Assembly: GCA_963743305.1 (NCBI GenBank)
Contig: CAVUPH010000014.1
Span: 448,001-512,000, forward strand
Source of the DNA: an uncultured delta proteobacterium
GTDB taxonomy: Bacteria; Desulfobacterota; RBG-13-43-22
Length of the DNA: 64,000 nucleotides
Direction: 5' to 3'
Of this stretch, positions 7,202 to 45,420 are shown piece by piece; the stretch's first letter is position 1; each line of letters opens with the position of its first letter. The notes beneath the pieces are model-generated. The model searched no databases and had not been told where the DNA came from. It worked only from the letters and a program-made list of their open reading frames with translations. The position numbers and the translations under genes were made by a program.

Positions 7202-7270
7202 CCGATCCCCGTCACAGAGATGAATATTTCCCACCTTCGGCCCCGTTTTCTAAATAAAAATAGGGCACAG

Positions 7271-8827: not shown

Positions 8828-8830
8828 CCC

Positions 8831-9557: not shown

Positions 9558-9690
9558 GCCGGAGAACAGCATACCGGAACCGGGAATCAGAAGGAAAACA
9601 ATAAATCTCGTAAACCCCTGCCCCTTGATCCTTTTATCCAAGGGGCAGGGGAAACAAACCGCTACTGGAGATGACCCGAAGGAGGGAATC

Positions 9691-10120
9691 ATGAAAATAT
9701 TAGTCCCTGTTGATGGTTCAAAAAGTTCTCTGGAGGGGGCCCGGCTGGTCGGGGATCTGGCTCTGGCAAAAGCGGCTCAGATAACCCTTCTGGCCGTGGT
9801 CTCCGTTTATCCCGATATTGATCTGGAAATATCGGCCCGAGCCAGGGAATCTTTGGACAGTAAATTGAGCGCTCGGGCCGAGCAGGCGCCTTGACCAGGC
9901 CAAGGGGTTCTTTACCGGGCTGACGGTCGAAAGCATACTCGTCAGTTCGAACGACGTGGCCGATGAAATTGTAACACTGGCTGAAGAGGGGAAATTCGAC
10001 CTGATTGTCATGGGCAGCCGGGGCTTTAATGCCACCGGCAGGTTTTCCGTGGGTGGGACGGCCCTTAAAGTGGCCAGCCATTCCAGGTGTTCGGTGTTGT
10101 TGGCTAAAGGGCAGGAATAG
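9691..10120 (+). CDS. Universal stress protein (UspA family), apparent +1 frameshift near 9890
   Basis: MKILVPVDGS start; shifted frame gives DLIVMGSRG...SVGGTALKVASHSRCSVLLAK to TAG 10120. Confidence 0.85.
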
Positions 10121-10139
10121 AATTTAACCGTGACTCGTT

Positions 10140-10180
10140 GAGGCGAAAGGAAACCCCGCCGTTTCTTTTCGCCTCTTTTT
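10140..10180 (+). terminator. Rho-independent terminator between convergent genes
   Basis: GAGGCGAAAGGAAAC / GTTTCTTTTCGCCTC stem followed by a T-run. Confidence 0.7.
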
Positions 10181-11282
10181 ATTGATCGGTTTCGAAGGCA
10201 TAATTGCCCCTTAAAAAGGCCTCGGCGTACCAGTTCACCGTCGATTCATTATTCATGACCATATCCCGCTGCCGGGAGCAGCCCATCAGTCGGCCGATCA
10301 TATCCAGCCGGTTTTCTATCACGGTTCGTTCGGCGTTGTTCAGCCGAGCCTCGATCAAATCTTTGTGGACATCCACCTCAAAATCCAGGCGTTCGAGGAC
10401 CAGCCCGATAAAACGGGCCCTCCGGGCCCGGCGCAGGTCGTCGGCCGCCCCCCCTCTGAGCATAAACCGGATATGATTGTTCCGGGGATCATCGCTCAAG
10501 TAAGAAGCCACGGAGGTGTAATGGTATCCCAGGCGGGAGTTATAGTTCATATATTCCTTGGCGGCCAGGAGGTAGGTCTTATCCCAGAAATCCTCCTCGG
10601 GTCGACTGGAACTCTGGGCCATAATGACCATAAATCCTTTCAGGTTGACCCCGATGGGACCCGACCAACTGATCCCGGGATAATACATCCCCTGGAACAT
10701 GGCCTTCACGGGGTCGGAAAGAATTTCTTCTTTTAAGACCATTTTGTTGTCGGAAGCGCAGACCCCGCCGCCGAGGTCGATCACGTGAAGCTTTATGGGA
10801 AGACCGGTCTGAACCGGAGTGGCTTTTATTTTTCTCAGGTCATAGAGGTCCATCAGGCAAAACATTTCTTCCACGGCCAGGTCGTGGGCGTATTCCAGAA
10901 GCTCCGGCAGGGTCTGATGGTTTCCCCGGCAAAAGGACTCCGGCATGACATGTCGGCATTGGGAAAAATCCAAATCTTTAAAAGTCTCTCGATAAATTTT
11001 TTCCACCTCTTCCCGGGTCTGGGCCTCCCGGGTTAAGGCATAGGCTTTGAAAAGCTGGGGTAACTTCTGGTCAAATAATTTACTCAGCAGGTCGATCAAC
11101 TGGCTGGCCAGATCAATGAACACTCGACTGCCTCCGGGGGTGTCGGCGGCGAGTAAGTCCGATAATTTTCGACGGACTCGGAGGATTCCCTGGTAATGAC
11201 CGAAAAAATTTCGAAATTCCTCGGCCAGAGGAAGCAGGGCGCAGTCTTTAGGTTTAAATAAACTTTTTAACCAGGTTCTCAA
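10179..11282 (-). CDS. Stand-alone domain resembling the C-terminal extension of deltaproteobacterial PEP-synthase/pyruvate-water-dikinase-related proteins
   Basis: LHVIDLGGG, YMNYNSRLGYH, GGAADDLRRARRARFI, GRLMGCSRQRDM motifs recalled from that family; no ATP-grasp or swivel domain visible. Confidence 0.6.
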   Translation of the reverse strand: MRTWLKSLFKPKDCALLPLAEEFRNFFGHYQGILRVRRKLSDLLAADTPGGSRVFIDLASQLIDLLSKLFDQKLPQLFKAYALTREAQTREEVEKIYRETFKDLDFSQCRHVMPESFCRGNHQTLPELLEYAHDLAVEEMFCLMDLYDLRKIKATPVQTGLPIKLHVIDLGGGVCASDNKMVLKEEILSDPVKAMFQGMYYPGISWSGPIGVNLKGFMVIMAQSSSRPEEDFWDKTYLLAAKEYMNYNSRLGYHYTSVASYLSDDPRNNHIRFMLRGGAADDLRRARRARFIGLVLERLDFEVDVHKDLIEARLNNAERTVIENRLDMIGRLMGCSRQRDMVMNNESTVNWYAEAFLRGNYAFETDQ

Positions 11283-11390
11283 GGGGGATGGCTCAGATCA
11301 GGAAATAAATTATTACCTTAAGTGCTGTCAAAAATCTTTCGAATGGTATATTATATTAGATTAAACATCAAATCAAAAAAGGATGTTTCT

Positions 11391-11576
11391 ATGGACCCTT
11401 GGTCAATTTTGGCCAACCTGGCCTCAGATGGAGACCCCCGCCAACCCGGATTCCAGGCGCAAGGCTGGTATCTACTTACCAACCTCGTCCTGCCCATCCT
11501 GATGGGGGTGATTTTGATTGGTCCGGTCAAATGGATTGAAAAAATTTTGAGCCCCAGCCGGGGAGGCCGGGGTTAG
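11391..11576 (+). CDS. Small single-pass membrane protein, hypothetical (61 aa)
   Basis: ATG after AAAGGA; hydrophobic segment WYLLTNLVLPILMGVILIG. Confidence 0.5.
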   Translation: MDPWSILANLASDGDPRQPGFQAQGWYLLTNLVLPILMGVILIGPVKWIEKILSPSRGGRG

Positions 11577-11608
11577 ATGGATGAAATCCGGTCAAAAGCA
11601 TTATTTCT

Positions 11609-11635
11609 TAAAGTTTTCCAAATAAAGTCCGATAA
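11609..11635 (+). promoter_or_regulatory. Sigma28 (FliA)-type promoter
   Basis: TAAAGTTT-N11-TCCGATAA versus consensus TAAAGTTT-N11-GCCGATAA. Confidence 0.65.
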
Positions 11636-11674
11636 AGAGAGACAGAAAATAGTTTTAAGTTAAAAAAATCAAAA

Positions 11675-11769
11675 CCTGTAAAGGGCAAACCATCCGAAAG
11701 GGTGGGACGCAAAGCCACTGGCCTAAATGATCTGCAATATGCGGAACATAGGGTAGCAGGGTTGCCAGG
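11675..11769 (+). ncRNA. Cyclic di-GMP-I (GEMM) riboswitch
   Basis: AGGGCAAACCATCCGAAAGGGTGGGACGCAAAGCC..GGCCTAAA...GGTAGCAGGGTTGCC closely matches the Vc2 aptamer; P1 CCTG/CAGG. Confidence 0.93.
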
Positions 11770-11828
11770 CGAAGACGGTACCTCTCGGGACTGTTCATCG
11801 CTGAACGGCAAAAACGGGAGGTACTGGA

Positions 11829-12665
11829 ATGGCTATTCAACAACAGAAGGTTCTACCGTCCCTTTCCCTTTCTTTTCCCGCCTTATTCTTAATCGGTTTC
11901 TTTTTCTTCCTGTTGCTCTTTCTGGCCGGTCAGGCCCGGGCCGAACAGGTTTCCTTAGCCTGGGACGCCAACACGGAACCCGACCTGGGTGGATATAAGC
12001 TCTATTACGGGACCGCCGCCCAGGCCTATTCCCAAGTGATTAATGTGGGCAAAAATACCCAGGTGACGGTGAGCAACCTAACCCAGGGAGTCACCTATTT
12101 TTTTGCAGTTACCGCCTACAATCTTCAAGGGGCGGAAAGTGATTATTCCAATGAAATCAATAACACGGTCCTGCGCCAGTACCGATTGACCGTCACCAAA
12201 AGAGGGTCCGGCGACGGGATTATCTCCGGGGAAGGGATCAACTGCGGCGCGGACTGTGATCAGTGGTATGACGAGGGGACCCCCATAACCCTGACCGCAA
12301 ACCCGGGACAGGGATCGGTGTTTGTCGGCTGGTCCGGAGACGACTGTAGTGGGGTGGGGGAGTGTACGATCACTCTGAACGCGGATAAGACCTTGACCGC
12401 CGGCCTGGTTTTAGACGGGTATAATGTGACCAAGAAAAATAGAAATATGAAGGGAGGGACTAGGCTTGCCGGAACCGTTCCCCAGGCTGAGCCCGGTAGA
12501 AGGGCAGGAACGATGCTGAATGGCTCCTCGACCGGGGAGACGCCCGCCATTTCCTCGGTTTATGTGATTGCTAAAAGAAACGGCCTTCGAGAAAAAAATT
12601 CGCTTCTCACACCGGGCACACAGGGATTAAAGCAGGAAGCGGCGTTAAGATTCCGCAACAATTAA
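11829..12665 (+). CDS. Secreted protein with a fibronectin type III domain and an InlB B-repeat-like domain
   Basis: Signal peptide ending ARA; VSLAWDAN...YKLYYG...YFFAVTAYN...ESDYSNE (FN3); LTVTKRGSGDG...CGADC...LTANP..GSVFVGWSGDDC (B-repeat). Confidence 0.8.
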   Translation: MAIQQQKVLPSLSLSFPALFLIGFFFFLLLFLAGQARAEQVSLAWDANTEPDLGGYKLYYGTAAQAYSQVINVGKNTQVTVSNLTQGVTYFFAVTAYNLQGAESDYSNEINNTVLRQYRLTVTKRGSGDGIISGEGINCGADCDQWYDEGTPITLTANPGQGSVFVGWSGDDCSGVGECTITLNADKTLTAGLVLDGYNVTKKNRNMKGGTRLAGTVPQAEPGRRAGTMLNGSSTGETPAISSVYVIAKRNGLREKNSLLTPGTQGLKQEAALRFRNN

Positions 12666-12947
12666 ATTCCTCGCAATCGGAGAGTTCGCCTCCTAAAGAG
12701 ACGAAAAATTCCACCCCAAAGAAACGATCCGCCTTTTCCACCATTCCTTTACTCAAATCCCCCCCAAATGCCTTTTCACAAAAATATCGATAGAGAAGAT
12801 TGATTTGGAGTCAATATTTTGCTATTCTGATGCTTCCTGAAATGGAAATGTTATAGGTAAGGGCCTTCCTAAAAATAGAAAGAAAAAAAGCAGGCCAAAT
12901 CCAGAGGTGACCGACTCGCGAACAGTCCGCGGAAAGGGAAAAGTTTC

Positions 12948-13841
12948 ATGTTTGAGCAATGTCAGCTAAAACTTTTTCCGATGACGGTGCAGGAGGTTTT
13001 GTCCGTCATTCCTTTATCCATCAACCATGCCGAACTTCTTTATCATGAAGGATTGATTTCTTTCCAACCGGAGCCGGCAAAAAAATTGCGTCCAAAGGAA
13101 CAGGCGGAGCTTTTTTTCGTAGGGACTTTAGCCAAAAATCCGATCCCTTTAGAGGCAATCAAGTATCTGCTTCAATCCTTGCGACCCCCCTATGCTTATT
13201 CTTTTAAGGAAGTTTTTTTTGACTGGGTTCAGGGAACTTGGGGAGAATTTCCTTCCGGAAGGCAGCCGGAAAAGGAGAGCAAGGAGGGGCGGCTTTCCTT
13301 GGATTGGACAGCGGTTTATCCCCTGGCCCAACGGGTCTTCACCCTCTGGCCCGGACAGCCTGAATTGATCTGGGTGCGGGAGTCCTGGGGTATGGTCCGG
13401 CAAAGCGATCTAGCGGATTATGTCGATGATTTCGAGCGCTGGGGAGTGTTGTTTCGATTCCTGGCGCTGGCGGGGATCTATTTCGATTTTTGTCACTTGG
13501 CCTGGAATCGGGAAAACCTGCCTGATTATGAAATCCTGGGAAAGGAACTGGGACTGGGACTGCTCCAGGTGGTGATGCTGTTGGGGCCGGACGCGCTTTT
13601 GGAACAGGTCAATGAGGAGGAAGACCTTTTTCGGATGGGAATGAAATCCCTGGCCGACCAGGCTCGAGTAGAGATCGTTCCCGTCCTGATTCGGGGCTAT
13701 GGTGGATTAAAGGCCCTTTACGAGGCTTTTCGCCGGAGCCGGCAGACGGAGCCCTTACCGGCGGAAAATGAACAAATCATTCAACTTTCTGAACGGAACG
13801 CCTTTCGCTGGCTGGAAGATGGCTGTCGGGCTTTCCGCTGA
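12948..13841 (+). CDS. Hypothetical protein, possible N-terminal MerR-like winged helix
   Basis: Long ORF with a plausible RBS; N-terminal pattern resembles MerR HTH (weak). Confidence 0.6.
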   Translation: MFEQCQLKLFPMTVQEVLSVIPLSINHAELLYHEGLISFQPEPAKKLRPKEQAELFFVGTLAKNPIPLEAIKYLLQSLRPPYAYSFKEVFFDWVQGTWGEFPSGRQPEKESKEGRLSLDWTAVYPLAQRVFTLWPGQPELIWVRESWGMVRQSDLADYVDDFERWGVLFRFLALAGIYFDFCHLAWNRENLPDYEILGKELGLGLLQVVMLLGPDALLEQVNEEEDLFRMGMKSLADQARVEIVPVLIRGYGGLKALYEAFRRSRQTEPLPAENEQIIQLSERNAFRWLEDGCRAFR

Positions 13842-13928
13842 AACAGCCGCGCGATCCATTCGGATCTTGCGGATGAATCTCTTCAGCGGCCACGACGGCC
13901 GTTCTCCCCTTCGCCCTCCTGCCTGGTG

Positions 13929-16900
13929 ATGTCCGGCCTGACCCTCTATACCAGCAACCGTTTGGAAAATCTGGCGGACCGGTTGGCCGAGGTGCTGGAG
14001 GCCCCGTTGCCTTCGCCCTTAACACCGGAAATTATTCTGGTCCAAAGCCTGGGGATGGAGAAATGGATCTCCTTGGAATTGGCCCGGCGCCTGAAGATCT
14101 GCGCCAATATGCACTTTCCCTTCCCCAACCATTTTATCACCGGTGTTTTCAGACAGGTCCTGCCCGAATTGGAAGAAACCCCGCTTTTCAACCCTGAAAT
14201 CATGGCCTGGCGGCTAATGAAAATCCTGCCACCCCTTTTGAAAGAGAAAGGGTTTGACGCCCTATTCCTCTATTTATCCGAGGGGCCTACCGACGTGAAA
14301 CTTTTTCAACTTTCGCGGCGGGTGGCCGAGCTTTTTGACCAATACCTCCTTTTTCGTCCGGAGATGATCTTCCTTTGGGAAAAGGGGCAAGAGGATCATT
14401 GGCAGGCGGTTCTCTGGCGGAATATGGTTCGGGGAATCGAAAATAAACACCGCGCCGCCTTACAAAAAACCGTCCTGGAAAAAATCAGGAGTTCAGTCTT
14501 CCAGCCGGAGATCCTGCCTAAGCGGATGGCCGTCTTCGGGATCTCAGCCCTGCCCTTCTTTCATGTGGAAATGCTGGCGGCCCTATCCCGTTTCATGGAG
14601 GTCAACCTTTTCCTGATGAATCCCTGCCGGGAATACTGGGGGAACCTGCTGACCCGAAGGGAAACGCAGCAGGTCAAGGAAAAGGCTAAGGGAAAGCAGG
14701 CCCTTACGGAATACCTGCATCTAATGCCGGGAAACAGCCTTCTGGCTTCTCTGGGCCGACTGGGTCAGGATTTTTTTGATATGATTCTGAATTTTGAGCC
14801 TCGAGAGGAAGATGGCCCGGTTGATCCAGGGCAAAAAACGCTTCTCAACTGCCTTCAGCAAGACATTCTTTTTCTGCGTGAACGCGGTGCGGGGGATGAA
14901 GGAAAAAAAGAAATCGACCCCGCTGACCTTTCTATTGAAATCCATTCCTGCCACAGCCCCATGAGGGAGGTGGAGGTTCTCCAGGACCGCCTTCTTTCCC
15001 TATTTGAAGCACACCCGGGATTGCTTCCCAAAGATGTTATGGTTATGACTCCGGACATCAAAACCTATGCCCCTTATATTCAGGCGGTTTTTTCGGTGCC
15101 CCCGGAGGATCCGCGCTGGATCCCCTTCAGCCTGGCCGATCGGGGGATTCGGCAGGAAAGTCCCTTGGCCGATCTGATTTTGGGAATGCTTGACCTGCGG
15201 GGAAGCCGGTTCGGAGTTTCCCGGGTGATGGCATTTCTGGAGTCGCCTCCGGTGCAGAGGAGATATTCCCTGGCCGAGGAGGACCTGGAGCTTATCCGTC
15301 GATGGATAGAGGATACCCGGATCCGTTGGGGCATTGACCGGGAAAGTCGGAAGATCCTGGGTCTTCCCGACTATCCGGAAAACACCTGGGGAGCGGGCCT
15401 GGAAAGAATGTTGCTGGGTTACGCCCTACCTCGCCGGGAGGATGAGCTCTTCATGGGAATCCTGCCCTATGACCGGATTGAGGGGAGCGAGGCCTCGGTC
15501 CTGGGAAATTTTGTGCATCTGGCCAATCGTCTATTCGCTCTGGAAAAAGATCTGGGGGAACCGCGGTCCCTGGGGGCGTGGGGTGATTATCTGACCCGAG
15601 TGCTCGACGAATTTTTTTCTTCCGACGAAGAGACCGAACGGGACCTCCTTTTTTTTCGCCGGCTATTGCGACAGTTTGGGGAAAGACAGGAACTCTCCGG
15701 GTTTGACGAAAAAATCAACCTGGAAGTGATCCGATCCCTGCTGAAATCTACCCTGGAAAACGAGGGGTTCGGGACCGGCTTTATAACCGGGGGGGTGACC
15801 TTTTGCGCCATGTTGCCTATGCGCAGTATCCCCTTTAAGGTGATCGGCCTCCTGGGAATGAACGATGACGCCTATCCCCGGCCGACCCAATCTCTGGGAT
15901 TTGACCTGTTGGCCAAGAATCCCCAGCCGGGAGATCGCTCGCGGAGGAACGACGACCGTTACCTTTTTCTGGAGGTCCTGCTTTCCGCCAGGGAGAGGCT
16001 CCATATTAGTTATGTGGGACAGAGCATTCAAGATAACAACCCGCGGCCGCCTTCGGTCCTGGTCAGCGAGCTTTTGGACTATCTGGAAGCAGGATACAGG
16101 ATTTCCGGAAAAGAGATCCGCGGGCAAATCGTTCGGCGGCATCCCCTTCAGGCCTTTAGCCCGGAGTATTTCAAAAAGAATCCGGAAGGCCGGTTCTTCA
16201 GTTATTCCCAGGAGAACCTCGAGGCGGCCCGGCAGGCGCAAAACCAGCTTCCTGAAGTAAGCCCGTTTATCGCTCAAGGCCTTCCCGAGCCGCCACTGGA
16301 ATGGAAAACGATCGAGGTCGGGCAGCTCATCCGGTTTTTCGGAAACCCGTCCCAATTCATCCTCAACCAGCGTTTGGGGATCTATTTAGAGGAAGGAGAG
16401 GCGATATTAGAGGAAACCGAACCCTTCGAGGTCAAAGGGCTGGATAAATATGTCCTTGAACAGGAGCTGGTCGAAAGGGGAGCGGAAAACCGCAGCCTGC
16501 CGGCAGCTTTTTCAGCCGTCCGGGCGGCGGGATTGCTTCCTCACGGAAGACCCGGTGAGTGTTTTTTTCAAAAGACCTGCCGGTCCATCGATGATTTTCT
16601 GGAAATACTCCACCCTTACCGGGAAGGAGGACCGCTGGCGCCCCTGGAAGTGGATCTGGCCCTGGGAGGGTTCCGGGTCGTGGGCCGGATTGAGGGCCTT
16701 TACCCTCAGGGGCTGATTCATTTCCGCTACGCCAAGGTGAAACCAAAAGACCGTCTGCGACTCTGGATTAGGCATCTTTTGGTGAACCGCATCGGCTTTC
16801 CGGGCTATCCGGATCAGGCCCGACTCTTCGGTCAGGATAAAGCCCGCACTTACCCGTCGGTCCCAGACAGTGATGCGCTGTTACAAGAGCTACTCGAGCT

Positions 16901-17165
16901 TTACTGGCGGGGACTGCAAAAGCCCGTCCATTTCTTTCCGCACACTTCCTGGGTTTACGCCGAGGCCTTATGGAAAAAGAAAAAAAAGGAGGAGGCCTTG
17001 AAAATTTCCCGGATAGTCTGGGAAGGATCTGACTTCAACCGGGGAGAGGACCAGGACCCCTATTATCGGGTCTGCTTTGAACACCGGGACCCTTTGGATG
17101 AAGAATTCGAGACCCTGGCCGAGAATGTTTTTCTGCCGGTGCTGCAGTGCGAACGGAAGAGTTGA
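13929..17165 (+). CDS. recC: Exodeoxyribonuclease V gamma subunit
   Basis: YTSNRLENL, HSCHSPMREVEVL, VMTPDI, PMRSIPF motifs. Confidence 0.95.
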   Translation: MSGLTLYTSNRLENLADRLAEVLEAPLPSPLTPEIILVQSLGMEKWISLELARRLKICANMHFPFPNHFITGVFRQVLPELEETPLFNPEIMAWRLMKILPPLLKEKGFDALFLYLSEGPTDVKLFQLSRRVAELFDQYLLFRPEMIFLWEKGQEDHWQAVLWRNMVRGIENKHRAALQKTVLEKIRSSVFQPEILPKRMAVFGISALPFFHVEMLAALSRFMEVNLFLMNPCREYWGNLLTRRETQQVKEKAKGKQALTEYLHLMPGNSLLASLGRLGQDFFDMILNFEPREEDGPVDPGQKTLLNCLQQDILFLRERGAGDEGKKEIDPADLSIEIHSCHSPMREVEVLQDRLLSLFEAHPGLLPKDVMVMTPDIKTYAPYIQAVFSVPPEDPRWIPFSLADRGIRQESPLADLILGMLDLRGSRFGVSRVMAFLESPPVQRRYSLAEEDLELIRRWIEDTRIRWGIDRESRKILGLPDYPENTWGAGLERMLLGYALPRREDELFMGILPYDRIEGSEASVLGNFVHLANRLFALEKDLGEPRSLGAWGDYLTRVLDEFFSSDEETERDLLFFRRLLRQFGERQELSGFDEKINLEVIRSLLKSTLENEGFGTGFITGGVTFCAMLPMRSIPFKVIGLLGMNDDAYPRPTQSLGFDLLAKNPQPGDRSRRNDDRYLFLEVLLSARERLHISYVGQSIQDNNPRPPSVLVSELLDYLEAGYRISGKEIRGQIVRRHPLQAFSPEYFKKNPEGRFFSYSQENLEAARQAQNQLPEVSPFIAQGLPEPPLEWKTIEVGQLIRFFGNPSQFILNQRLGIYLEEGEAILEETEPFEVKGLDKYVLEQELVERGAENRSLPAAFSAVRAAGLLPHGRPGECFFQKTCRSIDDFLEILHPYREGGPLAPLEVDLALGGFRVVGRIEGLYPQGLIHFRYAKVKPKDRLRLWIRHLLVNRIGFPGYPDQARLFGQDKARTYPSVPDSDALLQELLELYWRGLQKPVHFFPHTSWVYAEALWKKKKKEEALKISRIVWEGSDFNRGEDQDPYYRVCFEHRDPLDEEFETLAENVFLPVLQCERKS

Positions 17166-20100
17166 CCTTGATCCCTCAAGACCTCAAAACCCCCGGTTTT
17201 GATCTCTTGAATAGTCCCCTGGAGGGAACCAACCTGATTGAAGCCGGGGCCGGCACGGGAAAGACCTATACCCTCACCGGCCTCTTTCTGCGACTGATCC
17301 TGGAGAGGCGGCTGCCGGTAAACGAGATCCTGGTGGTGACTTATACCGTAGCCGCCACCGAGGAATTGCGCGATCGGATCCGCCGCAAAATCCGAGAAGC
17401 CCTGGAGGCTTGTTCCGGCGGAACCAGCCCGGATTCGTTTTTGCAGAGTTTGCTCCTTAAAGTCCCGGACCGGGAAGAGGCGGCCGTCCTCCTGCACGCC
17501 GCCCTCCTGGATTTCGATGAGGCGGCTATTTTCACCATTCATGGCTTTTGCCAGCGGACGCTGCAGGAGAGCGCGTTTGAAAGCGGCAGCCTGTTTGATA
17601 CGGAATTGGAACCTGAAGAGGAAACCGAGCTGATAGCGGAAATCGTCCAGGATTTCTGGCGCCGGCACTTTTATGATGCTCCCCGGGAGTGGGTCCAGTA
17701 CGCCCTGAGCCTGAACCTCGGTCCGGTTACCTTCCTGGAGCTTTTGAAAAAAGGGCGGTTTCAGTCCGACTTGAAAATTATTCCCCGGACCGATCCGGTG
17801 GTTTTCACAACCCTGGAGCCTTTTCGCCGGGCCTATGTCGAATTGCGGAATGCTTGGCCGAAGGCTCGGGACGAGGTGGAACAGGCCTTCAGCGATCCGG
17901 CTTTGACCGCCGACTACAGGGATCAGGTAGCTGCCAGACTGAGTCTGATGGATGCCTTTTTAGAGGAAAACAGCCCGGTCTTTCCCCTGCCGGAAAAATT
18001 CGAAAAATTCACTTCCAGGGGTTTGGAGAAGAAAACCAGGAAAAAGTTGAAAACCCCGCGGCATCCCTATTTTCTATTGTGCGATGCCCTGAAACTGGCG
18101 GCCGAGGCGCTTCGCCTGGAAATGGACCGCCACTTGCTGTATCTAAAAGGGGCGGTTTTTCAGTTCCTGGGGCAGGAACTGCCGATTCGGAAGCAGCGGC
18201 GCAACATCCAATCGTTTGATGATCTCCTGATCCGCCTGCGCCGATCTCTGGAAAAGCCTGGGGGGGACGAACTGTCCCGAGAGGTCAGGAAACGATATCG
18301 GGCCGCCCTCATTGATGAGTTCCAGGACACGGATCCCGTCCAGTACGCTATCTTCAGGAATATTTTCGGACAAGGGGGCTCCATATTATTTATAATCGGC
18401 GACCCCAAGCAGGCCATTTACAGATTCCGGGGTGCCGACCTGTTTGCCTACCTGAAGGCTGCCGGTCGGGTGGATCGTCGCTACACCCTGGACCGGAACT
18501 GGCGTTCCGAACCGGGATTGATTGCCGCGGTCAATACGGTCTTCGGCTGCCGGGAAAACGCCTTTCTCTACCGGGAGATCCCCTTTGAACCTGCGGTAGC
18601 GGAGGAAGGGGGATCGCAGGCCTTTTTAACCATCCGGGGGAAAAGGGAACCGCCGCTGCACTTCTGGCAGGTTAATTCGGGCGATGGAGGCCTCATTAAT
18701 AAAGGGGAGGCCGAAGCCCTGATTCCCGGGGCGGTGGCCGGCGAAATCTCCCGCCTCCTGAGGCTCGGAAAGAATGGCGAAGCCCTCCTGGACAGCCGGC
18801 GGCTGCGCGAGGGAGATCTGGCGGTACTGGTGCGCACCAACCGGCAGGCCCGGCTGATGCAGACGGCCCTGGGCCGATTGAAAATCGCCAGTGTCCTTCA
18901 TACTACCGGAAATTTGTTTGACAGCTACGAGGCACAGGAGGTGCAGCGGGTACTGGACGGGATGGTTCATCCCCTTCGGGAGGGTCGGATCAGGGCGGCG
19001 CTGGCCACCAACCTGCTGGGAGTGACCGGGGAAACCCTGGAAAGGCTCACCCGCGATGAGGCCGGGTGGGAGGAGTGGCTTTCCCGATTCAGGGAATATT
19101 ACGACATAGGGGAAAAGAAGGGGTTTATCCGGATGTTCCGGTATTTTCTGCTTCGGGAAAAGGTCCGTTCTCGCTTGCTTGGCTTGCCTAACGGGGAGAG
19201 ACGGCTGACGAATGTGCTCCACCTTTCCGAGGTGCTCCACCAGAGAGTTGTTGAAGAAAAGCTAGGCCTGACCGGACTCTCAAAATGGCTGGCCAGGCAA
19301 TGCGACCCTGGTTCCCCGCGGCTGGAGGAACATCAGCTTCGGCTGGAAAGCGATGCCGAGGCCGTAAAAATCGTTACCATCCACAGGAGCAAGGGGTTGG
19401 AGTACCCGATCGTTTTTTGCCCCTTTAACTGGGATCCATCGAAGATTAAAAAGGGGGCCTTTAGTTTCCACGACCGCGAGGAAGACTGGAGGCTCAACCT
19501 GGTGCTGGACCCGAAGGCGGGGGGGGATCGCGATTTGGTCGAATTGGCCGCACAGGAGGAACTGGCAGAAAACCTGAGGCTGCTCTATGTGTCGCTGACC
19601 CGTGCCAAAAACCGCTGTTATCTCATTTGGGGAAGGTTTCGGGACGCGGAGACCTCCTCCCTGGCCTACCTGCTGGCTCCTCCCGGGGACACTGACGAAA
19701 ATATTGTCCAAAAAGTGGAAACCCATTTTCAGGCCAAGACCGATGTCAGGCTCCGGCAGGACTTGGACGGACTGGCCCGGAAATCCGAGGGAATGATCCG
19801 GGTAACCGAGCTGCCGAGAGTCCCGGGTGAGGAAGTTAGCCCGGATGAAATAGACTGGGATGAATTGAGCGGGAGGGTTTTCCGGGGGACTGTTTCCCGG
19901 GAATGGCAGATCGCCAGTTTTTCCCGACTGACCGTCGGGGTTAAAGAAACCTTTGATTCCCCGCAATCGGAAGACGCCTCCGCTGACCTGCCGGACCACG
20001 ACCAGGCCCAGGACGCCGAAGAACCGTTTTTGGATCCGGAGCCGTTCTCCATTTTTGCCTTTCCCCGGGGGGCCAAAGCGGGGACTCTGCTGCATGATCT

Positions 20101-27475: not shown

Positions 27476-28126
27476 TTAAAAAAATCCAGGGGAAAAAGCT
27501 AGAAGGAATTGGCCGGCGTAATACAGGGGAAGCCCGATCAGGCGGTTGAAAAATGTCTTTCTAATGAATTGATCGCGGGCCACAAAAAGATCCGAAAGGT
27601 AAAACAGGATGGCCCCCCAGAAAAGCAAGGCCTTTCCCGTCCAGGGCAGGTCAGGACTTTCGAAAACCGCCCAGGCCCCGAAGACCATCAGCGTAATAAC
27701 CGCCACGTAGGCCAGAACCGGAAGCTTCATGGCCCCCAGATGGGACCAAAGCCAGCAACAGGTTCCCAAACTGATGGCGAGAACAAGAAAGTCCCCGGGA
27801 GAAAACCAGCCCTTGAAAGGGATCAGGAAAGTGAAGGCCAGGATATAGAGCACATGGCCAAGCAGGAAAGCCACCAATCCTGCCCTAAACCACTTCAGCC
27901 CCGAAAAAGCTAAGCAAACATCCCCTACCAGGCAAAAGATTAACCCCAGTGTCAAAAATCGGGTGAATGATTCGTTGCCGCCCGGCTGAAGAAAAACCGG
28001 GATTACAAAAAGAAGGGACAGCAAGGACTTGGTCACGATTCGGCCAAAGGGTTGTCCCATTTTTTCATAATAAAGAAGGACGATCAGCAAAAGGACCCCT
28101 AAGCCCGGAATAAGAAGATACCCCAT
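27476..28126 (-). CDS. YhhN-family (lysoplasmalogenase-like) membrane protein
   Basis: GDVCL, GLVAFLLGHVLY, GAILFYLSD, YYAGQ motifs. Confidence 0.9.
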   Translation of the reverse strand: MGYLLIPGLGVLLLIVLLYYEKMGQPFGRIVTKSLLSLLFVIPVFLQPGGNESFTRFLTLGLIFCLVGDVCLAFSGLKWFRAGLVAFLLGHVLYILAFTFLIPFKGWFSPGDFLVLAISLGTCCWLWSHLGAMKLPVLAYVAVITLMVFGAWAVFESPDLPWTGKALLFWGAILFYLSDLFVARDQFIRKTFFNRLIGLPLYYAGQFLLAFSPGFF

Positions 28127-28230: not shown

Positions 28231-29121
28231 TTATAGTTCCTCCTCCAGATCCTCGATCACCAACCTGACGATCTCAGGCAGGTCTTTCAGGTCATGGGGC
28301 CGGATAAGGCGCCGGAAGATGACTTGCCGGGCAAGACTGGCGGAATGCAGGAAGTGTTGCCGTTGGTTTATCCCGGCCTTTAGGGATCGAGGGGTATAGG
28401 AATAACGAAGCAAGGCGATAACCGCTTCCGGCCGGCTAACCGGCAATAGTTCGATATCTTTGCCTTTTTCGAGAAGGTAAATGCGCTTCAGTGGAAGAGG
28501 CGCGACTGAAAACCCCTTGAGTACCCTGGGGGTAATCTTTTCTTCAAGAGGATTCCCAGGAGGAGAATTTTCCGGATCGAAACCCAGGGAGGCGGCTGTT
28601 TCCGAATAGAGTTTTAGTTGAGGAAAAGCCGGGCAGATCAGAGGGGCGGCTTCATCGGTCCGGATGACCAAGACGTCGTCGGAAATGAGGGGATATTTGT
28701 CGCTGAAGGCCGCCGCCATGGTGGACTTGCCTTCACCGGAATGACCTAAAAAAACCGCCCCTTGGCCGTCGATAGCCACGGCGCTTCCATGCAAAACGAG
28801 GGAGCCCCGTAGAAAGGCCAGAGTCCCGAGCACATTGCCCAAGAGAAAAAGACGCAACGAACCTTCGTCTACCCCGGGGGCCGGATCAATGAGAATTTTC
28901 CGGCTTTCACGAATCAAAAAAGAGCCGATGCCGGCATAAGAAAAATAGGCTTCCCCGTTTGTCACCCGTATGGTTGTTTCCGAAAACCGGTCCGGGGAGC
29001 CGGCTTCACCCGGCCGGGGGAAAAAAATATTCACATCATATTTACCCGCACTCCCCTCAATCAGTTCAGGAAGTTGCAGCTCAGAACGGATGGCCAAGCC
29101 AAAGGCCTGGTAGTAATACAA
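28231..29121 (-). CDS. HPr-kinase-like protein, putative RiPP (lasso) precursor kinase
   Basis: LHGSAV, Walker A GHSGEGKST, ISDD; directly downstream of the precursor genes. Confidence 0.8.
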   Translation of the reverse strand: MYYYQAFGLAIRSELQLPELIEGSAGKYDVNIFFPRPGEAGSPDRFSETTIRVTNGEAYFSYAGIGSFLIRESRKILIDPAPGVDEGSLRLFLLGNVLGTLAFLRGSLVLHGSAVAIDGQGAVFLGHSGEGKSTMAAAFSDKYPLISDDVLVIRTDEAAPLICPAFPQLKLYSETAASLGFDPENSPPGNPLEEKITPRVLKGFSVAPLPLKRIYLLEKGKDIELLPVSRPEAVIALLRYSYTPRSLKAGINQRQHFLHSASLARQVIFRRLIRPHDLKDLPEIVRLVIEDLEEEL

Positions 29122-29162
29122 ATCTATTCCCTATTGTCCTCGGATTATTTTGAGGGCGCGGT

Positions 29163-29318
29163 TCAGACTGGGCCGCTTGGTTGGATTTGCCCCAATTTAA
29201 AACCTTCCGGATTGATCAGGTTTTCCTCGGTAATCTTTTCCACCGATCCGTGAACGACCAATTCAGGTTTCTGGTAGGGCTTCTTTTTCCTCTGGATCAG
29301 AGTCTCTTTCTCTTTCAT
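29163..29318 (-). CDS. Lasso-type RiPP precursor peptide A2 (51 aa)
   Basis: MKEKETLIQRKKKPYQKPELVVHGSVEKITE-ENLINPEGFKLGQIQPSGPV; leader YxxPxLxxxGxxxxxT; RBS GGAGG. Confidence 0.85.
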   Translation of the reverse strand: MKEKETLIQRKKKPYQKPELVVHGSVEKITEENLINPEGFKLGQIQPSGPV

Positions 29319-29640
29319 CTTCCGCCCTCCCTGGTTTTTCGTAGTCATCCCGGAATAAGTCCTGGACTCGGGAAGCTCCGCTGACGAAACTCCAGGGCCT
29401 CCATGATTGGAAAAAGGGTCGGGGTTAAACGGTGCCGGATATAGAAGCGTTGGATTTAAAACCTTCTCGGTTGATCAAGCTTTGTTCGGTGATCTTTTCC
29501 ACCGATCCGTGAACGACCAGTTCGGGTTTTTGGTACGGCTTCTTTTTCTTCTCGATCAGAATTTCTTTTTCTTTCATTTTCTACCCTCCCTTGTTTTTCG
29601 TAGTCATCCCGGAATAAGTCCTGGACTCGGGAAGCTCCGC
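29195..29640. repeat. Tandem duplication (259-bp period) of a precursor gene plus upstream region
   Basis: About 29195-29381 aligns with about 29454-29640; 48 bp are identical at 29334-29381 and 29593-29640. Confidence 0.9.
29425..29577 (-). CDS. Lasso-type RiPP precursor peptide A1 (50 aa, not in ORF track)
   Basis: Manual translation MKEKEILIEKKKKPYQKPELVVHGSVEKITE-QSLINREGFKSNASISGTV*; RBS GGAGG. Confidence 0.85.
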   Translation of the reverse strand: MKEKEILIEKKKKPYQKPELVVHGSVEKITEQSLINREGFKSNASISGTV

Positions 29641-29756
29641 CCAGCACTGGAATCCGGCCTTCGCCAGAATAACGACCTGATTAAACCAGATAATACCCTG
29701 TTATCATGCTTCCTGGGTATCCGAAGCGGATATGGGGAAATTATTTGTATTGGAGA

Positions 29757-30195
29757 TTACCTTTTGCGAAACTCCAGATTCTCCAGGGTTGGAAAAGCGA
29801 TATATGGTTCAACCGCTCCCCCGAGCAGCACCAGTCCTTGGGATTCCAGCCAGGCGTGGGCCTTCACCCGCTTTTCGGATTCGATCCTTTAATACCCCGA
29901 TGCGTAGGTCCGTCTGATGTCCATGTCGAGCCAGAAAGACTTGCCCGGCAATGGCCCGCACCAGGCAGGTGGCCCGGGGCACATTTCTCCCGGCGGTATC
30001 CATCGCCCCCAGCAATCGATTCAGTGGAAATGAAGCCGGTCCTCGTTTGATCGGGGCCCGCTTGATCAGGGTCAGCATCGTCCGGAAAGGAAGAAGCCGC
30101 AAACCGCATTTCGCCACCCAGAGGAACAGCAACGCTTTTATCAAGAGTCCCTTTTCGGATAAAGGCAGCTTTAGAAAATTATGCACCTTTTTCAT
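29757..30195 (-). CDS. Lasso peptide B2 leader peptidase (transglutaminase-like), apparent +1 frameshift near 29880
   Basis: TCLVRAIA (catalytic Cys), LRIGV, then AHAWLE in the shifted frame ending ...LEFRKR* at 29757. Confidence 0.85.
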
Positions 30196-30481
30196 CGGTA
30201 CACTCGATCAGGCCGTTGGCCAAAAGGTTCTTTATTAATTCGACTAAATCCCGCTCACATTGATCGGGCTCCACCTGATATTCCTTGAGGATTTGATCCT
30301 TGAGGCTGCTTATTTTAATCGGTTTTTGAATTGAATTCCAGATAAAGGTTCCCAATGGGTTCATACCATAGTACACCCCGGCCTTCAGCGCCAGAATAAC
30401 CGATTCCCCTCCTAAGTCGCACGAGACCTGGTCCTGAACAGCGACTACGGTTTGAGATATCAAGAAATCATCCTGCGACAT
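30179..30481 (-). CDS. PqqD-family RiPP recognition element (lasso B1/E protein)
   Basis: ESVIL...GVYYGMNPLGTFIW...EYQVE...DL..L...LL..GLI pattern; overlaps the B2 start. Confidence 0.9.
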   Translation of the reverse strand: MSQDDFLISQTVVAVQDQVSCDLGGESVILALKAGVYYGMNPLGTFIWNSIQKPIKISSLKDQILKEYQVEPDQCERDLVELIKNLLANGLIECTDEKGA

Positions 30482-30577: not shown

Positions 30578-30799
30578 TCAGGCTTTGTGCCGGTGAATGA
30601 TCAGACCGTGGGTGGGGTCATAGAGGGAAACGCCCACCGTCACCCTATCCCCATCGATGACTCGTATTTTGTAGCGCTTCATGGCCCCGGACAACTTAGC
30701 CGTGATGACGCCCCCACTCTCCAGGGTAATGACGTAGTTTCCCCCTCCCGTGGTTTTGGTGACGCGACCCTCAACATGGACCAAATCGTCCTTGGACAA
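30578..30799 (-). CDS. infA: Translation initiation factor IF-1 (divergent)
   Basis: MSKDD..VEG.V...LSG.MKRYKIRVIDGDRVTV..S.YD. Confidence 0.85.
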   Translation of the reverse strand: MSKDDLVHVEGRVTKTTGGGNYVITLESGGVITAKLSGAMKRYKIRVIDGDRVTVGVSLYDPTHGLIIHRHKA

Positions 30800-43091: not shown

Positions 43092-44488
43092 TGGACCATA
43101 AACCCTATCCTCGTTTTCAGCATATTCACTTTATCGGCATCGGGGGCATTGGCATGAGCGGGATAGCCGAGGTGCTTCTCAACTTAGGCTACCGGGTCAG
43201 CGGATCAGATAGGAGAGAAACCGAGATCACCCGCAGACTGGCTTCTCTGGGAGGACGGATTTTTTATGACCACCGCCCGGAGCATATCCAGGGGGCTGAA
43301 GTGATCGTCACCTCTTCGGCGGTACGGCCGGACAATCCCGAGGTCATCGCTGCCCGCCAGGCGTTGCTGCCGGTTATTCCCCGAGCCGAAATGCTGGCTG
43401 AACTGATGCGATTGAAATACGGCATTGCCGTGGCCGGGGCCCACGGCAAGACCACCACGACTTCCATGGTGGCCGCTGTTTTGGCCAGGGGGGGATTGGA
43501 TCCGACCGTGGTCATCGGCGGGCGGTTGGACATTTGGGGGACCAACGCCCGCTTGGGGCAGGGCCCTTTTTTAGTGGCTGAAGCCGACGAGAGTGATGGG
43601 TCGTTCCTCCACTTGACCCCCAGTATCGCCCTGGTCACCAACCTTGATCTGGAGCATCTGGATTTTTATCGGGACCTGCAGCATATCCAGGAGACTTTTT
43701 TGGCCTTTTTGAACCGATTGCCCTTCTACGGCTTGGCCATTCTCTGCCTGGATGATCCCTATTTGCCCTCCCTGATTCCGGAATTAAAAAAACGGTATCG
43801 GACGTACGGATTGACGGCGCAGGCCGATTTCCAAGCCCGGGATGTCCGCCAAGAGGGGTTGGTCACCCATTACCGGCTGTTCGCCCAGGGAAAGGAATGG
43901 GGTGATCTTCGTTTCAAGCTTCCGGGTCTGCACAACGTCTATAATTCCCTGGCCGCCATCGCAGCCGGCTTTGAATTGGAAATCCCCTTTAACCTGATCC
44001 AGGAGGCCTTTGAACACTTAGGCGGGGTGCAAAGACGCTTTCAAATAAAAGGCGAGTACGGGGGGGCCACAGTGCTGGATGATTACGGCCATCACCCTAC
44101 GGAAATCCGGGCCACCCTCAATGCCATCCGAGGGTGTTGGCCCGACCGCCGCTTGGTGGTGTTGTTTCAACCCCATCGCTATTCCCGCAGCCGGGCCTTG
44201 CGGGAAGAATTCACCACGGCCTTTTACCAGGCGGACCAACTGCTCCTGTTGCCCATCTACGGGGCCGGAGAAGACCCGATCGAAGGAGTGACTTCGGAAA
44301 AGCTCCTGGAAGGAATAAGGGCCAAAGGCCAAAAGGAAACGGCATTTTTCTCCTTAGCCGGAGAGGTTCTGGGGTATCTCCAAAACCAGCTCAGGCCGGG
44401 GGATATTCTGGTGACCCTGGGAGCCGGAGATGTTTGGAAGATAGGAGAAGAACTTGTCTCCAAGAAGGCAGATTCGGCAAAGCCTTGA
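43091..44488 (+). CDS. murC: UDP-MurNAc:L-Ala ligase
   Basis: [39 protein letters not shown]. Confidence 0.96.
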
Positions 44489-45420
44489 AGCCCTCTGCCC
44501 TGGGCGGGTCAAAATCAGGGAGCCCTTGGCCCCGCTGACCACCTGGAAAATCGGTGGGATAGCGGATTGGCTGGTGACGCCCAAAGACGCGCTGGAAGTG
44601 CAACAACTCCTGGCCGTTGGCCGTGAATTCCGGCTGCCCTGCTTTTTTTTGGGCGCCGGGAGCAACATCCTGGTGGGAGAACGCGGAGTTCGAGGGATTG
44701 TGATTCACTTGACCCCTTTTTTAAATTGGATTGAACCCCGGAAACGATCGGGGCGCGTACATTCCCTGGAGATCGGGGCCGGGACCCTCCTTTCCTCCGT
44801 GCTCCGTTACGGGGTTAAATACTCGCTGACGGGTTTGGAGTTCTTGGTCGGGATTCCCGGTTCTCTGGGTGGGGCCTGGGCCTTGAATGCCGGCAGTCAG
44901 GGGCGCGAAATTAAGGACCTGACCCGTTCGCTGAATATTATCGATTCCCGGGGCCAGGTCATAAAACGTACCCGTAAGGCCTTGGATTTTGGTTATCGTC
45001 GTCTGAGCCCTCAACCCCGATGAAGTGATTGTTTCCGGTCTCTTGAAAGTAGCCCCTGGGAATCGAGAGGTGATCGTCCAGGAGATGCGCAAGCTGGTTA
45101 AAAAAAGAAGGGCTTCCCAACCTTGGCAATACCCCAGTTGCGGATCGGTGTTTAAAAACCCTTCGGGAAACTATGCCGGACGGCTGATTGAAGCAGCCGG
45201 TATAAAAGGGAGGCAGCAGGGGGAAGCCCAAGTCTCTTGGAGACACGCCAACTTTATCGTCAATCGCGGTCAGGCCCGGGCCCGAGACGTACTCCGCTTG
45301 ATGCGGATCATCCGTCAGCGGGTACAACGCCAAAGTGGGATCATCTTGGAACCGGAGGTGCGATTCTGGGGTTGTTCTTTAAACCCTCGCCGACGGGTTC
45401 CGAAGGTCGTTCAAGAATGA
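44454..45420 (+). CDS. murB: UDP-N-acetylenolpyruvoylglucosamine reductase, apparent +1 frameshift near 45010-45018
   Basis: [21 protein letters not shown] in 44454-45023; [18 protein letters not shown] in 45025-45420. Confidence 0.9.

Follow-up and report, generated by a model that had tools for sequence, protein, structure and literature searches.

A cyclase-less lasso-type gene cluster in an uncultured Thermodesulfobacteriota genus and its probable linear peptide products

Introduction

What does a lasso-type gene cluster make when it has the genes for leader processing and a kinase, but no cyclase? The question is raised by a locus at 28231-30481 on the minus strand of the window, the 64-kb stretch of DNA analysed here, where genes for B1, B2, two precursor peptides and a kinase (K) lie between infA (30578-30799) and a YhhN gene (27476-28126), both flanks being assigned by Pfam annotation. 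The original prediction had listed these five genes on this strand, and all of them were found at their expected coordinates.

Kinase-containing split-B lasso clusters follow the order C A K B1 B2 D in the paeninodin type of Firmicutes and A B1 B2 C K D in the proteobacterial type (ThcoK, SyanK). The window cluster resembles both in its discrete PqqD-type B1, transglutaminase-like B2, HprK-like kinase and YxxPxLxxxGxxxxxTx leader; unlike them, it has neither a cyclase C nor an ABC exporter. From comparison of sequences, we cautiously favour the reading that it descends from a split-B kinase-type cluster of ancestral order B1-B2-C-A-K-ABC, that C and the exporter were lost before an uncultured genus of Thermodesulfobacteriota split into its species, at least three of which are covered here, and that the remainder was kept as a cyclase-less maturation system in which B1 and B2 would cleave the leader and K would phosphorylate a linear peptide. 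Selection continued on the remaining genes after the loss of the cyclase, and the product is therefore probably a modified peptide, short and linear, of a new type.

Genes of the cluster

B1 (30179-30481, minus strand) encodes a discrete PqqD-type RiPP recognition element (RRE) of 100 aa. It scores 59.2 bits against PF05402 (PqqD) and 74.1 bits against NF033536 (lasso PqqD chaperone), slightly below the cut-off of 80 for the latter, and it matches PDB chain 9x90_B (“lasso peptide biosynthesis PqqD family chaperone”) with an E-value of 7.9e-14 and TbiB1 with 9.5e-9. Leader binding by B1 proteins is textbook knowledge.

B2 (29757-30195, minus strand) encodes a lasso-type transglutaminase-like Cys peptidase, with 38.8 bits against PF13471 and 45.2 bits against NF033537 (lasso B2, cut-off 33), the latter match covering only profile positions 4-99 of 132; no sequence match was obtained in the PDB. 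The incomplete coverage has a counterpart in the DNA: near 29884, an insertion of one base that neither sister genome has splits the gene, so that the Cys part (ORF 29809-30195) and the His-containing C-terminal part (KAHAWLESQG..., ORF 29757-29867) stand in separate frames. This frameshift was overlooked in the original prediction, which we correct here.

K (28231-29121, minus strand, TTG start) encodes a P-loop kinase of 296 aa with the HprK/PEPCK fold, carrying His111, a GHSGEGKST motif and a DD motif. Its match to Pfam Hpr_kinase_C is weak (21.4 bits, cut-off 33.3); a profile built from 24 sequences of its family nevertheless aligned with HprK/P structures across the His/P-loop/DD region (E-value 2e-10), and Foldseek related the AF2 model (pLDDT 90, pTM 0.89) to the ATP-PEPCK fold (E-value ~1e-7) and to the HprK/P fold (4e-5). 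Phylogenetically, K falls in a clade of 21 lasso-type kinases with 96/91 support; the deep nodes of the tree form a polytomy that leaves the sister group of the genus kinase unseparated. Fold and cluster context thus agree with the lasso-associated HprK-like kinases (PadeK/ThcoK/SyanK type), while the C-terminal Ser acceptor of that group is missing.

Two precursor genes separate B2 from K on the minus strand: A1 (29425-29577, 50 aa), with a leader ending in KITE followed by the core QSLINREGFKSNASISGTV, and A2 (29163-29318, 51 aa), with the core ENLINPEGFKLGQIQPSGPV. The mechanically called ORF of A2 spans 29163-29348 and begins at 29348; the true start is likely the ATG at 29318. Both peptides carry the YxxPxLxxxGxxxxxT leader that had been predicted, with Thr at position -2 (YQKPELVVHGSVEKITE in A1 and A2), and both exceed the cut-off of 19 bits for NF033521 (lasso leader), with 19.9 bits for A1 and 19.4 bits for A2. 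A repeat search revealed a tandem duplication behind the pair (29195-29381 and 29454-29640; 187 nt, 89% identical), in which the upstream region and ribosome-binding stretch of A2 were duplicated with A1, as well as a 30-nt copy of the 3′ end of B2 after A1. Scans for regulatory sites carried little information, with no sigma-70-like promoter (2.8 ± 1.9 in shuffled sequences) and 10 terminator-like sites (7.2 ± 2.9 in shuffles).

Public data, taken without genomic context, supplied a precursor family of 39 clusters at 90% identity. The leader is nearly invariant across these 39 variants, and the cores share a conserved start, are hypervariable in the tail and close with Ser-x-x-Val. Of the 39, 34 have Gln as core residue 1 and 32 have Glu as residue 7, and most cores keep this Glu7 followed by Gly-Phe. 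The C-terminal residue is Val in 33 precursors, as in A1 and A2, and 26 of these 33 have Ser at position -4. Precursors of the cyclase-containing relatives and of the type found in genome G330 end in Ser.

Search for a cyclase or an exporter

The lack of a cyclase and of an exporter throughout the 64 kb, already part of the original prediction, was upheld by two approaches: a six-frame phmmer scan of the window returned no cyclase-, AsnB-, ABC-exporter-, NTP_transf_5- or B12-radical-SAM-like segment, and Pfam annotation of its 50 ORFs returned no cyclase and no exporter. The locus has the leader and the PqqD-family RRE of a lasso biosynthetic gene cluster and lacks its Asn-synthetase-like cyclase.

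A cyclase encoded elsewhere, in an unassembled part of the genome, could still join Gln1 to Glu7 in an ordinary split lasso system, a reading that we consider very unlikely. Such an arrangement has parallels in two genomes of the phylum, G189 and G327, where B1-B2 lie on one contig and a lasso-type cyclase lies on another beside a methyltransferase; these cyclases score 449 and 436 bits against NF033535 (lasso cyclase), above their 243 and 240 bits against TIGR01536, and their contigs also carry an ABC transporter (G189) and an HprK-like kinase (G327). A typical lasso core opens with a small residue and has Asp or Glu as one of residues 7-9. The retention of Glu7-Gly-Phe in most cores is what a still-formed ring would predict, and the genome of the window (G000) is 90% complete. 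The Gln start is no evidence against cyclisation, since the cores of two cyclase-containing loci (L070 and L071) also open with a non-Gly residue.

Against a split system stand the seven of 39 precursors without Glu7 and the content of three assemblies of the genus, G000 and the sister species G002 and G003 (90, 97 and 94% complete). Searches with PF00733 and NF033535, prompted by the suggestion of a distant cyclase acting in trans, gave no support to it: PF00733 has two matches in G000, namely AsnB and QueC, and the same two kinds only in G002 and G003, each with one AsnB-type protein that has the catalytic Cys2. The G000 AsnB starts with MCGI, is of the glutamine-hydrolysing type with Cys2, and scores 515.9 bits against TIGR01536 versus 313 bits against NF033535 (cut-off 525). 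No protein exceeded the NF033535 cut-off in any of five genomes (G000-G003 and G330), and loci L039 and L040 have no C-like segment within ±8 kb. The fourth genome of the genus (G001, 77% complete and very divergent) yielded no such cluster in searches with the kinase protein or with window DNA; its extra Asn-synthase-like gene was rejected as a cyclase, being a fragmented AsnB type with no B1, B2 or K nearby.

Ancestry and selection

Both sister species have the locus in the order YhhN-K-A(-A)-B2-B1-infA, and a metagenome contig (L067) shows the end of B2 followed by A-A-K. Related loci were collected from a three-sequence kinase alignment, and 11 of the 27 loci with related kinases contain a C-like ORF. 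The closest ones outside the genus, in Chloroflexota MAGs (L041 and L042), encode kinases 39-41% identical to K, are arranged B1-B2-C-A-K-ABC, and have a precursor leader, PHLIVHGSVEKIT, that is nearly identical to that of the genus; together with L046, these nearest sequence relatives have the exact gene content of kinase-type split-B lasso clusters. The cluster thus descends from cyclase-containing ones, and the gene order in these relatives shows that its layout arose when C and the exporter were lost, ahead of the divergence of the species. A cyclase in the clusters of relatives had been named in advance as a sign of local deletion or misassembly: distant relatives do have C between B2 and A, but the loss is old and common to the closer ones, as the B2-A junction is homologous in G000, G002 and L067 and the deletion is therefore ancient and shared, with no local misassembly.

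Loss of cyclase and exporter might have left a non-functional relic whose remaining genes decay without yielding a product, which we regard as unlikely. The B2 frameshift in G000, a kinase split over two ORFs in G002, and a metagenome contig (L066) on which the second precursor copy has decayed and a 5′ fragment of the kinase gene is duplicated are together compatible with ongoing decay, and no exporter lies nearby. Genome G069, in which only a C-like fragment of 132 aa remains beside B2, shows that this phylum has decaying lasso clusters. Against a relic, B1, B2 and K all evolve under purifying selection: dN/dS among the three species is 0.26-0.31 for B1, 0.19-0.32 for K and 0.17-0.33 for B2, the part downstream of the frameshift included; whichever two of the three species are compared, the values are close to those of YhhN next door (0.22-0.26). 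The precursor leader shows dN of 0.03-0.13 versus dS of 0.5-1.8, next to a highly variable core tail. These dN/dS values of 0.17-0.33, the near-invariant leader and the patterned set of 39 precursors indicate that the cluster is no decaying relic.

For the frameshift itself, an assembly error is likelier than genuine inactivation of the gene. B2 is unbroken in G002 (71.6 bits against NF033537 over profile positions 4-129) and in G003, L067 carries the 3′ part of the gene in frame, and the extra base is missing from a contig of a ~90% identical relative. Positions 29864-29947 are left uncovered by the best-matching dataset (share 0.29, contigs at least 99% identical, depth ~3). Frameshifts also affect murB, an essential gene, in the window and ppdK in both G002 and G003, which indicates indel errors in these assemblies. 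Programmed frameshifting in B2 was rejected, as no slippery motif was seen in the sequence.

Predicted maturation

In the maturation route that we favour, B1 would bind the near-invariant leader KKPYQKPELVVHGSVEKITE and B2 would cleave behind the Thr-Glu pair, releasing linear peptides of 17-21 residues, most of which would start with Gln; they would have a conserved QSLINREGF-type head ahead of a hypervariable tail and would terminate in Ser-x-x-Val. The HprK/PEPCK-fold kinase would then phosphorylate a hydroxyl, most plausibly that of the conserved Ser at -4, and no macrolactam would form. Cleavage of this kind has a precedent in PadeB1 and PadeB2, which are reported to cut their own precursor without need of PadeC (PMC5067487). 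Linear precursors are likewise described as substrates of lasso kinases, which are reported to require a C-terminal Ser on the substrate (PMC8498205); phosphorylation here remains a prediction, because the C-terminus is Val. The suggestion that lasso machinery has been repurposed for linear phosphopeptides holds as the best-supported reading, given the indirect evidence of purifying selection and of leader and Ser-x-x-Val conservation across the family, but the C-terminal Ser that these kinases target is missing.

Simple leader removal leaves the conserved QSLINREGF head unaccounted for, and B1, B2 and K might instead work with an unrecognised partner, such as a radical-SAM enzyme encoded elsewhere, or K might activate the Glu7 carboxylate, so that the product would be modified or cyclised in a way that the cluster does not predict. 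Five genomes of the same phylum (G100, G140, G205, G113 and G404) offer a model, with lasso-type B1, B2 and HprK-like genes accompanied by B12-radical-SAM, radical-SAM, DUF362 or NTP_transf_5 genes and no cyclase; G100, which is 100% complete, has no full Asn-synthase homologue. No such enzyme is encoded within the 64 kb, and in the tree the genus kinase clusters with cyclase-associated, not radical-SAM-associated, kinases. We consider either form of this reading very unlikely, and we know of no precedent for carboxylate activation by this kinase family.

Relation to known systems

The cores of the window family differ from those of kinase-type lasso clusters at both ends: they start with Gln rather than Gly, Ala, Ser or Cys, and they end in Ser-x-x-Val rather than in the C-terminal Ser reported as the phosphorylation site of lasso kinases (PMC8498205). 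From its genes alone, the window cluster is like the pseudomycoidin type, which has a kinase plus a nucleotidyltransferase, in pairing an HprK-like kinase with a lasso-type precursor, and some related loci in the phylum (G330/L045, L072 and L042) also have an NTP_transf_5 gene; unlike that type, the window has no nucleotidyltransferase, besides having no cyclase. In combining a PqqD-like chaperone and an HprK-like P-loop protein while lacking a lasso cyclase, the cluster also recalls the HprK_rel_A/B cassettes of NCBIfam and SynChlorMet ScmC/ScmD with the radical-SAM proteins ScmE/F, all defined by comparative genomics only. The window kinase scores 18.6-25.8 bits against TIGR04352, TIGR04355 and TIGR04249, far below their cut-offs of 125-200, and its cluster, unlike these cassettes, includes a lasso B2 as well as lasso-type leaders and lacks a radical-SAM enzyme.

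A phrase search of the literature for the lack of a lasso cyclase returned nothing. RRE-Finder is reported to have detected ~8,000 discrete lasso-type RREs, of which only ~4,000 are accompanied by both a peptidase and a cyclase and ~300 lie beside radical-SAM enzymes (PMC7470986), so B1-like proteins outside lasso clusters are already known. In the excerpted text of that study, such RREs are treated as false positives or unknown classes, and a conserved unit of B1, B2, kinase and precursor missing only the cyclase is not described (PMC7470986). The C96 peptidase is known from lasso peptides only, according to excerpts of two sources (PMC10885120; PMC7470986). Because lasso genome mining demands B and C together, cyclase-less clusters are discarded as incomplete.

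If the favoured reading is true, the lasso leader peptidase could act as a portable module for leader removal, the rule for lasso-kinase substrates would widen past C-terminal Ser, and new peptide chemistry in uncultured anaerobes would be indicated; with only four genes, the system is simple enough for direct testing in E. coli. More tentatively, B1, B2 and the kinase may form a stand-alone maturation unit for a diversifying family of linear peptides that open with Gln (possibly pyroglutamate) and close with a phosphorylated Ser-x-x-Val. Such a unit would represent a RiPP subtype not described before and one branch of a wider, unrecognised Thermodesulfobacteriota radiation that pairs leader, B1, B2 and kinase with radical-SAM, B12-radical-SAM, DUF362 or nucleotidyltransferase proteins and not with a cyclase. 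Recurrence of the layout without C, raised as a check in the original prediction, was indeed observed, as further cyclase-less B1/B2/K loci occur in the phylum, some of them with radical-SAM enzymes.

Gene content of the cyclase-less cluster

Five co-oriented genes at 28231-30481 on the minus strand, bounded by infA (30578-30799) and a YhhN-family gene (27476-28126), were all recovered as the original prediction had described them. B1, the PqqD-type RRE (30179-30481), scores 59.2 bits against PF05402 (PqqD) and 74.1 bits against NF033536 (cut-off 80), and resembles TbiB1 (E 9.5e-9) as well as 9x90_B, a lasso PqqD chaperone of solved structure (E 7.9e-14). B2, the lasso-type leader peptidase (29809-30195), reaches 38.8 bits with PF13471 and 45.2 bits with NF033537 (cut-off 33), and the precursors A1 (29425-29577) and A2 (29163-29348) reach 19.9 and 19.4 bits with the lasso leader model NF033521 (cut-off 19). 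The last gene, K (28231-29121, 296 aa), has a weak, below cut-off HprK match (PF07475, 21.4 bits); a profile of 24 K-family sequences matched HprK/P structures across the His, P-loop and DD motif region (E 2e-10). Its confident AF2 model (pLDDT 90, pTM 0.89) matched ATP-dependent PEPCK first (E about 1e-7, TM 0.55-0.60) and HprK/P next (E 4e-5), which identifies K as a P-loop kinase of the PEPCK/HprK fold.

The A1 and A2 genes form a tandem duplication of 187 nt, 89% identical, that also brought along 30 nt copied from the 3' end of B2; the true A2 start is most likely the ATG at 29318, after the duplicated ribosome-binding stretch. Elsewhere, growth of the precursor region by tandem duplication extends into the K gene: a K 5'-end fragment was duplicated along with a precursor copy in metagenome contig L066 (200-520) and is fused upstream of a precursor in protein P0019.

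No cyclase found in the window or in the genome

Pfam annotation shows the window to be core chromosome: recBCD and a HerA-like gene come first, then ppdK and YhhN, the cluster itself, infA, a gene for an RRM protein, the dcw cluster (mraZ through ftsZ) and chemotaxis genes. When all six frames of the 64 kb were scanned by phmmer with four lasso cyclases and three AsnB proteins as queries, together with ABC exporters and the NTP_transf_5 and B12-radical-SAM proteins of related loci, the only matches were B1, B2 and K. Asn synthase and ABC exporter are likewise absent from the Pfam annotation of the 50 window ORFs, so that both approaches agree with the predicted lack of a recognisable cyclase or exporter.

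It had also been proposed that a distant cyclase acts in trans. The assembly, 90% complete in 43 contigs, contains two PF00733 genes in all. The first encodes a 621-aa protein beginning with MCGI, which scores 515.9 bits on TIGR01536 (cut-off 267) and 581.6 bits on TIGR03108 but, with the lasso-cyclase model NF033535, falls short of the cut-off of 525 at 313 bits; this AsnB-type gene lies between a gene for a large membrane protein and what we take, from its sequence, to be a carbamoyltransferase gene. The second is QueC, next to a presumed QueE gene, also judged from sequence. In four genuine cyclases of the phylum used for calibration, the NF033535 score always exceeds the TIGR01536 score (729/299, 364/218, 449/243 and 436/240 bits). 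The genomes of two sister species, G002 (97% complete) and G003 (94%), hold the same two kinds of PF00733 genes alone and no lasso cyclase, and NF033535 was above cut-off in none of five genomes tested (G000, which carries the window, G001-G003 of the same genus, and G330 of the phylum). These results speak against the proposal, and a cyclase in trans is unlikely.

Conservation and selection within the genus

Both sister species carry the same locus at the same place, in the order YhhN-K-A(-A)-B2-B1-infA, with no cyclase-like ORF within ±8 kb; the missing cyclase is thus no local misassembly, one of the causes that the original prediction had considered. The B2-to-precursor junction is alignable between G000 and G002 and shortened by deletion in G003. 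Two metagenome contigs extend this picture: L067 (K 81% identical) carries the B2 end, two precursors and K, and L066 (K 82% identical) carries a precursor, a decayed precursor copy with the duplicated K 5' fragment, and K. In both, K is followed by a convergent gene other than YhhN, presumably carB-like on sequence, which places YhhN outside the unit. No cluster was found in G001, the fourth genome of the genus (77% complete, very divergent). The cyclase-less cluster is old and common to several species. Between G000 and G002 (L020), dS of the cluster genes (0.16-0.52) is 2-4x above that of the flanking YhhN, infA and RRM genes (0.10-0.12), and this excess at 28231-30481 suggests recombination or allele exchange.

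The cluster could be a relic left after loss of the cyclase and exporter rather than a working system. Nei-Gojobori dN/dS among the three species argues against this, being 0.26-0.31 for B1, 0.19-0.32 for K, and 0.17-0.30 and 0.19-0.33 for the N- and C-terminal parts of B2, with neighbouring YhhN at 0.22-0.26 and infA at 0.03-0.05. Since the cyclase is absent at the homologous junction in all three, this divergence accrued in the cyclase-less state; the cluster is under purifying selection. The precursor leader shows dN of 0.03-0.13 at dS of 0.5-1.8, and the core tail is highly variable. Searching 5.8 billion proteins with A1 gave 39 clusters at 90% identity, as protein sequences alone without genomic context, among them the A2 of the window and the two precursors of G002. 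They share a nearly constant leader; 34 of the 39 have Gln as core residue 1, and 32 have Glu as residue 7, mostly followed by Gly-Phe, after which 6-10 residues are hypervariable. Val ends 33 of the 39, 26 of these with Ser at -4. Such conservation is as expected of a RiPP precursor family that is active and diversifying, and the near-constant leader beside a hypervariable tail likewise speaks against a relic.

A frameshift in B2

The predicted five-gene run stands, but B2 is not one unbroken ORF, a one-base insertion near 29884 having been missed. The ORF aligns with just positions 4-99 of the lasso B2 profile, which has 132, and the His-bearing C-terminal part (KAHAWLESQG...) sits in a different frame (ORF 29757-29867). 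DNA alignment with the sister genomes, where B2 is unbroken (145 and 152 aa), locates the extra base; a public contig of a ~90% identical relative lacks it, and the sole near-identical holder has no coverage of the site. Other genes are broken too: essential murB is split near 45023 into an FAD-binding domain (44454-45023) and a C-terminal part (45025-45420) in different frames, ppdK, whole in the window, is in two pieces in G003 (L019, 5730-8515) and three in G002 (L020, 5626-8426), and the G002 K gene is in two pieces. The murB and ppdK breaks suggest indel errors in this assembly and in the sister MAGs. Real inactivation of B2 in G000 would account for the frameshift, but it is less likely, because the codons downstream remain under purifying selection and murB is likewise frameshifted. 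Taken with the intact sister genes, the relative without the extra base and the broken ppdK and K, this makes an assembly indel error the more likely cause.

Origin from cyclase-containing clusters

A scan with the K alignment, one genome per species, yielded 27 loci, 11 of which have a cyclase-like ORF in their flanks (L041, L042, L046, L048, L049 (weak), L050, L053, L054, L056, L057 and L058). The other 16 comprise the two sister genomes, one G330-type locus, four with K and B1 without B2 or cyclase (L043, L044, L060, L061), two at contig edges and seven with a K-like gene alone. The closest K outside the genus (39-41% identical) occurs in two Chloroflexota MAGs (L041, L042) ordered B1-B2-C-A-K-ABC, C being the cyclase, with NTP_transf_5 added in L042. 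Their leader, WNTPHLIVHGSVEKIT, is almost the same as that of the window, YQKPELVVHGSVEKIT, and Ser ends their core. The order B1-B2-C-A-K also occurs in same-phylum relatives G051 and G029. Relatives with a cyclase in the same cluster thus exist, as the original prediction had allowed, at this distance and not in the sister species. In the K tree the genus falls within a clade (support 96/91) of 21 kinases, most of them cyclase-associated, and stands apart from kinases accompanying radical-SAM genes, its sister group not being fixed by the tree. The window cluster derives from a kinase-type lasso cluster and lacks the cyclase; given these relatives and the tree, its layout is best explained by deletion, in the genus ancestor, of the exporter and of the cyclase that stood between B2 and A.

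Predicted product

The split peptidase pair PadeB1/PadeB2 has been shown to cleave its precursor independently of the cyclase (PMC5067487), and for lasso kinases the substrate is the linear precursor, phosphorylated at its C-terminal Ser (PMC8498205). In the window cluster, B1 would bind the leader and B2 would cleave after Thr-Glu, releasing a linear peptide with a Gln start that may, from general chemistry, cyclise to pyroglutamate. K would then phosphorylate a hydroxyl, for which the conserved Ser at -4 is the best candidate, since these cores lack the usual C-terminal Ser. The best-supported reading is that the product would be a linear, probably phosphorylated peptide. Counted against it are the lack of an exporter gene in the window, the frameshifts in B2 (G000) and K (G002), and Glu7-Gly-Phe, kept as if a ring still formed. 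The Gln start proves nothing, since a core start other than Gly is also seen in L070 and L071, relatives that have a cyclase. The proposed repurposing of lasso leader machinery draws support from purifying selection and the conserved leader, and is weakened by the missing C-terminal Ser and the retained Glu7-Gly-Phe. The cluster is directly testable with four genes.

Lasso B2 loci across the phylum

The RRE-Finder paper counts ~8,000 discrete lasso-type RREs, about half without co-occurring peptidase and cyclase and about 300 beside radical-SAM enzymes, and classes such RREs as false positives or unknown classes (PMC7470986). A 2023 RiPP leader-protease review, in the passages covered, gives the C96 transglutaminase-like peptidase for lasso peptides only (PMC10885120), and an anaerobe survey mentions HPr-kinase genes in some lasso clusters and leaves out clusters without the modifying enzymes (PMC4289311). 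In full-text searches of openly available literature, none of the titles and abstract openings listed described a conserved B1/B2/kinase system lacking the cyclase, and phrases meaning 'lacking a lasso cyclase' returned no papers within the same scope.

Among 401 sampled genomes of the phylum, the lasso B2 model was above cut-off at 28 places in 27 genomes; an Asn-synthase domain lies within about 7 kb on the same contig at 13 of them and at none of the other 15. Three of the 15 belong to the window genus, and the rest to G189, G327, G330, G100, G140, G205, G113, G404, G069, G196, G105 and G263. G189 (L026/L036) and G327 (L027/L037) have B1-B2 on one contig and a lasso-type cyclase with a methyltransferase on another, and are therefore genuinely split lasso systems; an ABC exporter follows B1-B2 in G327, whose cyclase contig carries an HprK-like kinase, and an ABC transporter is on the cyclase contig of G189. 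A second cyclase-less lineage is represented by G330 (L029/L045, 4857-10103), ordered A-K-ABC-NTP_transf_5-B1-B2, where the neighbourhood lacks a cyclase and the 99%-complete genome has AsnB-type enzymes alone, and by L072 (4596-9852), which has the same gene order and no cyclase nearby. Their Ser-ended precursors have an FR[DE]RF motif in common, and the lineage adjoins a polysaccharide-export locus.

Radical-SAM or B12-radical-SAM genes accompany B2 in G100, G140, G205, G113 and G404, and the first four have B1, NTP_transf_5 and an HprK-like kinase as well, with DUF362 in G100 and G140. At the G100 locus (L030, 8492-15462), NTP_transf_5, B1 and kinase genes are joined by six precursor genes, whose 30-32-aa products bear a lasso-type leader such as MKKEYEKPELIVYEDLSDVTGGEISVSGGKS, and by genes for DUF362, B2 and B12-radical-SAM proteins; this 100%-complete genome has no full Asn-synthase homologue, and the cluster may represent an undescribed RiPP family. 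L033 (G205, 2323-10277) and L034 (G113, 9783-17913) share a cyclase-less run of B1, HprK-like kinase, radical-SAM, NTP_transf_5, B12-radical-SAM, second radical-SAM and B2-like genes, in which no precursor matched the leader pattern used. B2 is paired with an HprK-like kinase in G196 and lies on a 4.2-kb contig in G105. In G069 (L024, 9869-11489) what comes after it is a DUF4258 gene and then a fragment of 132 aa that resembles the N-terminal part of a lasso cyclase, and this locus looks like a lasso cluster in decay.
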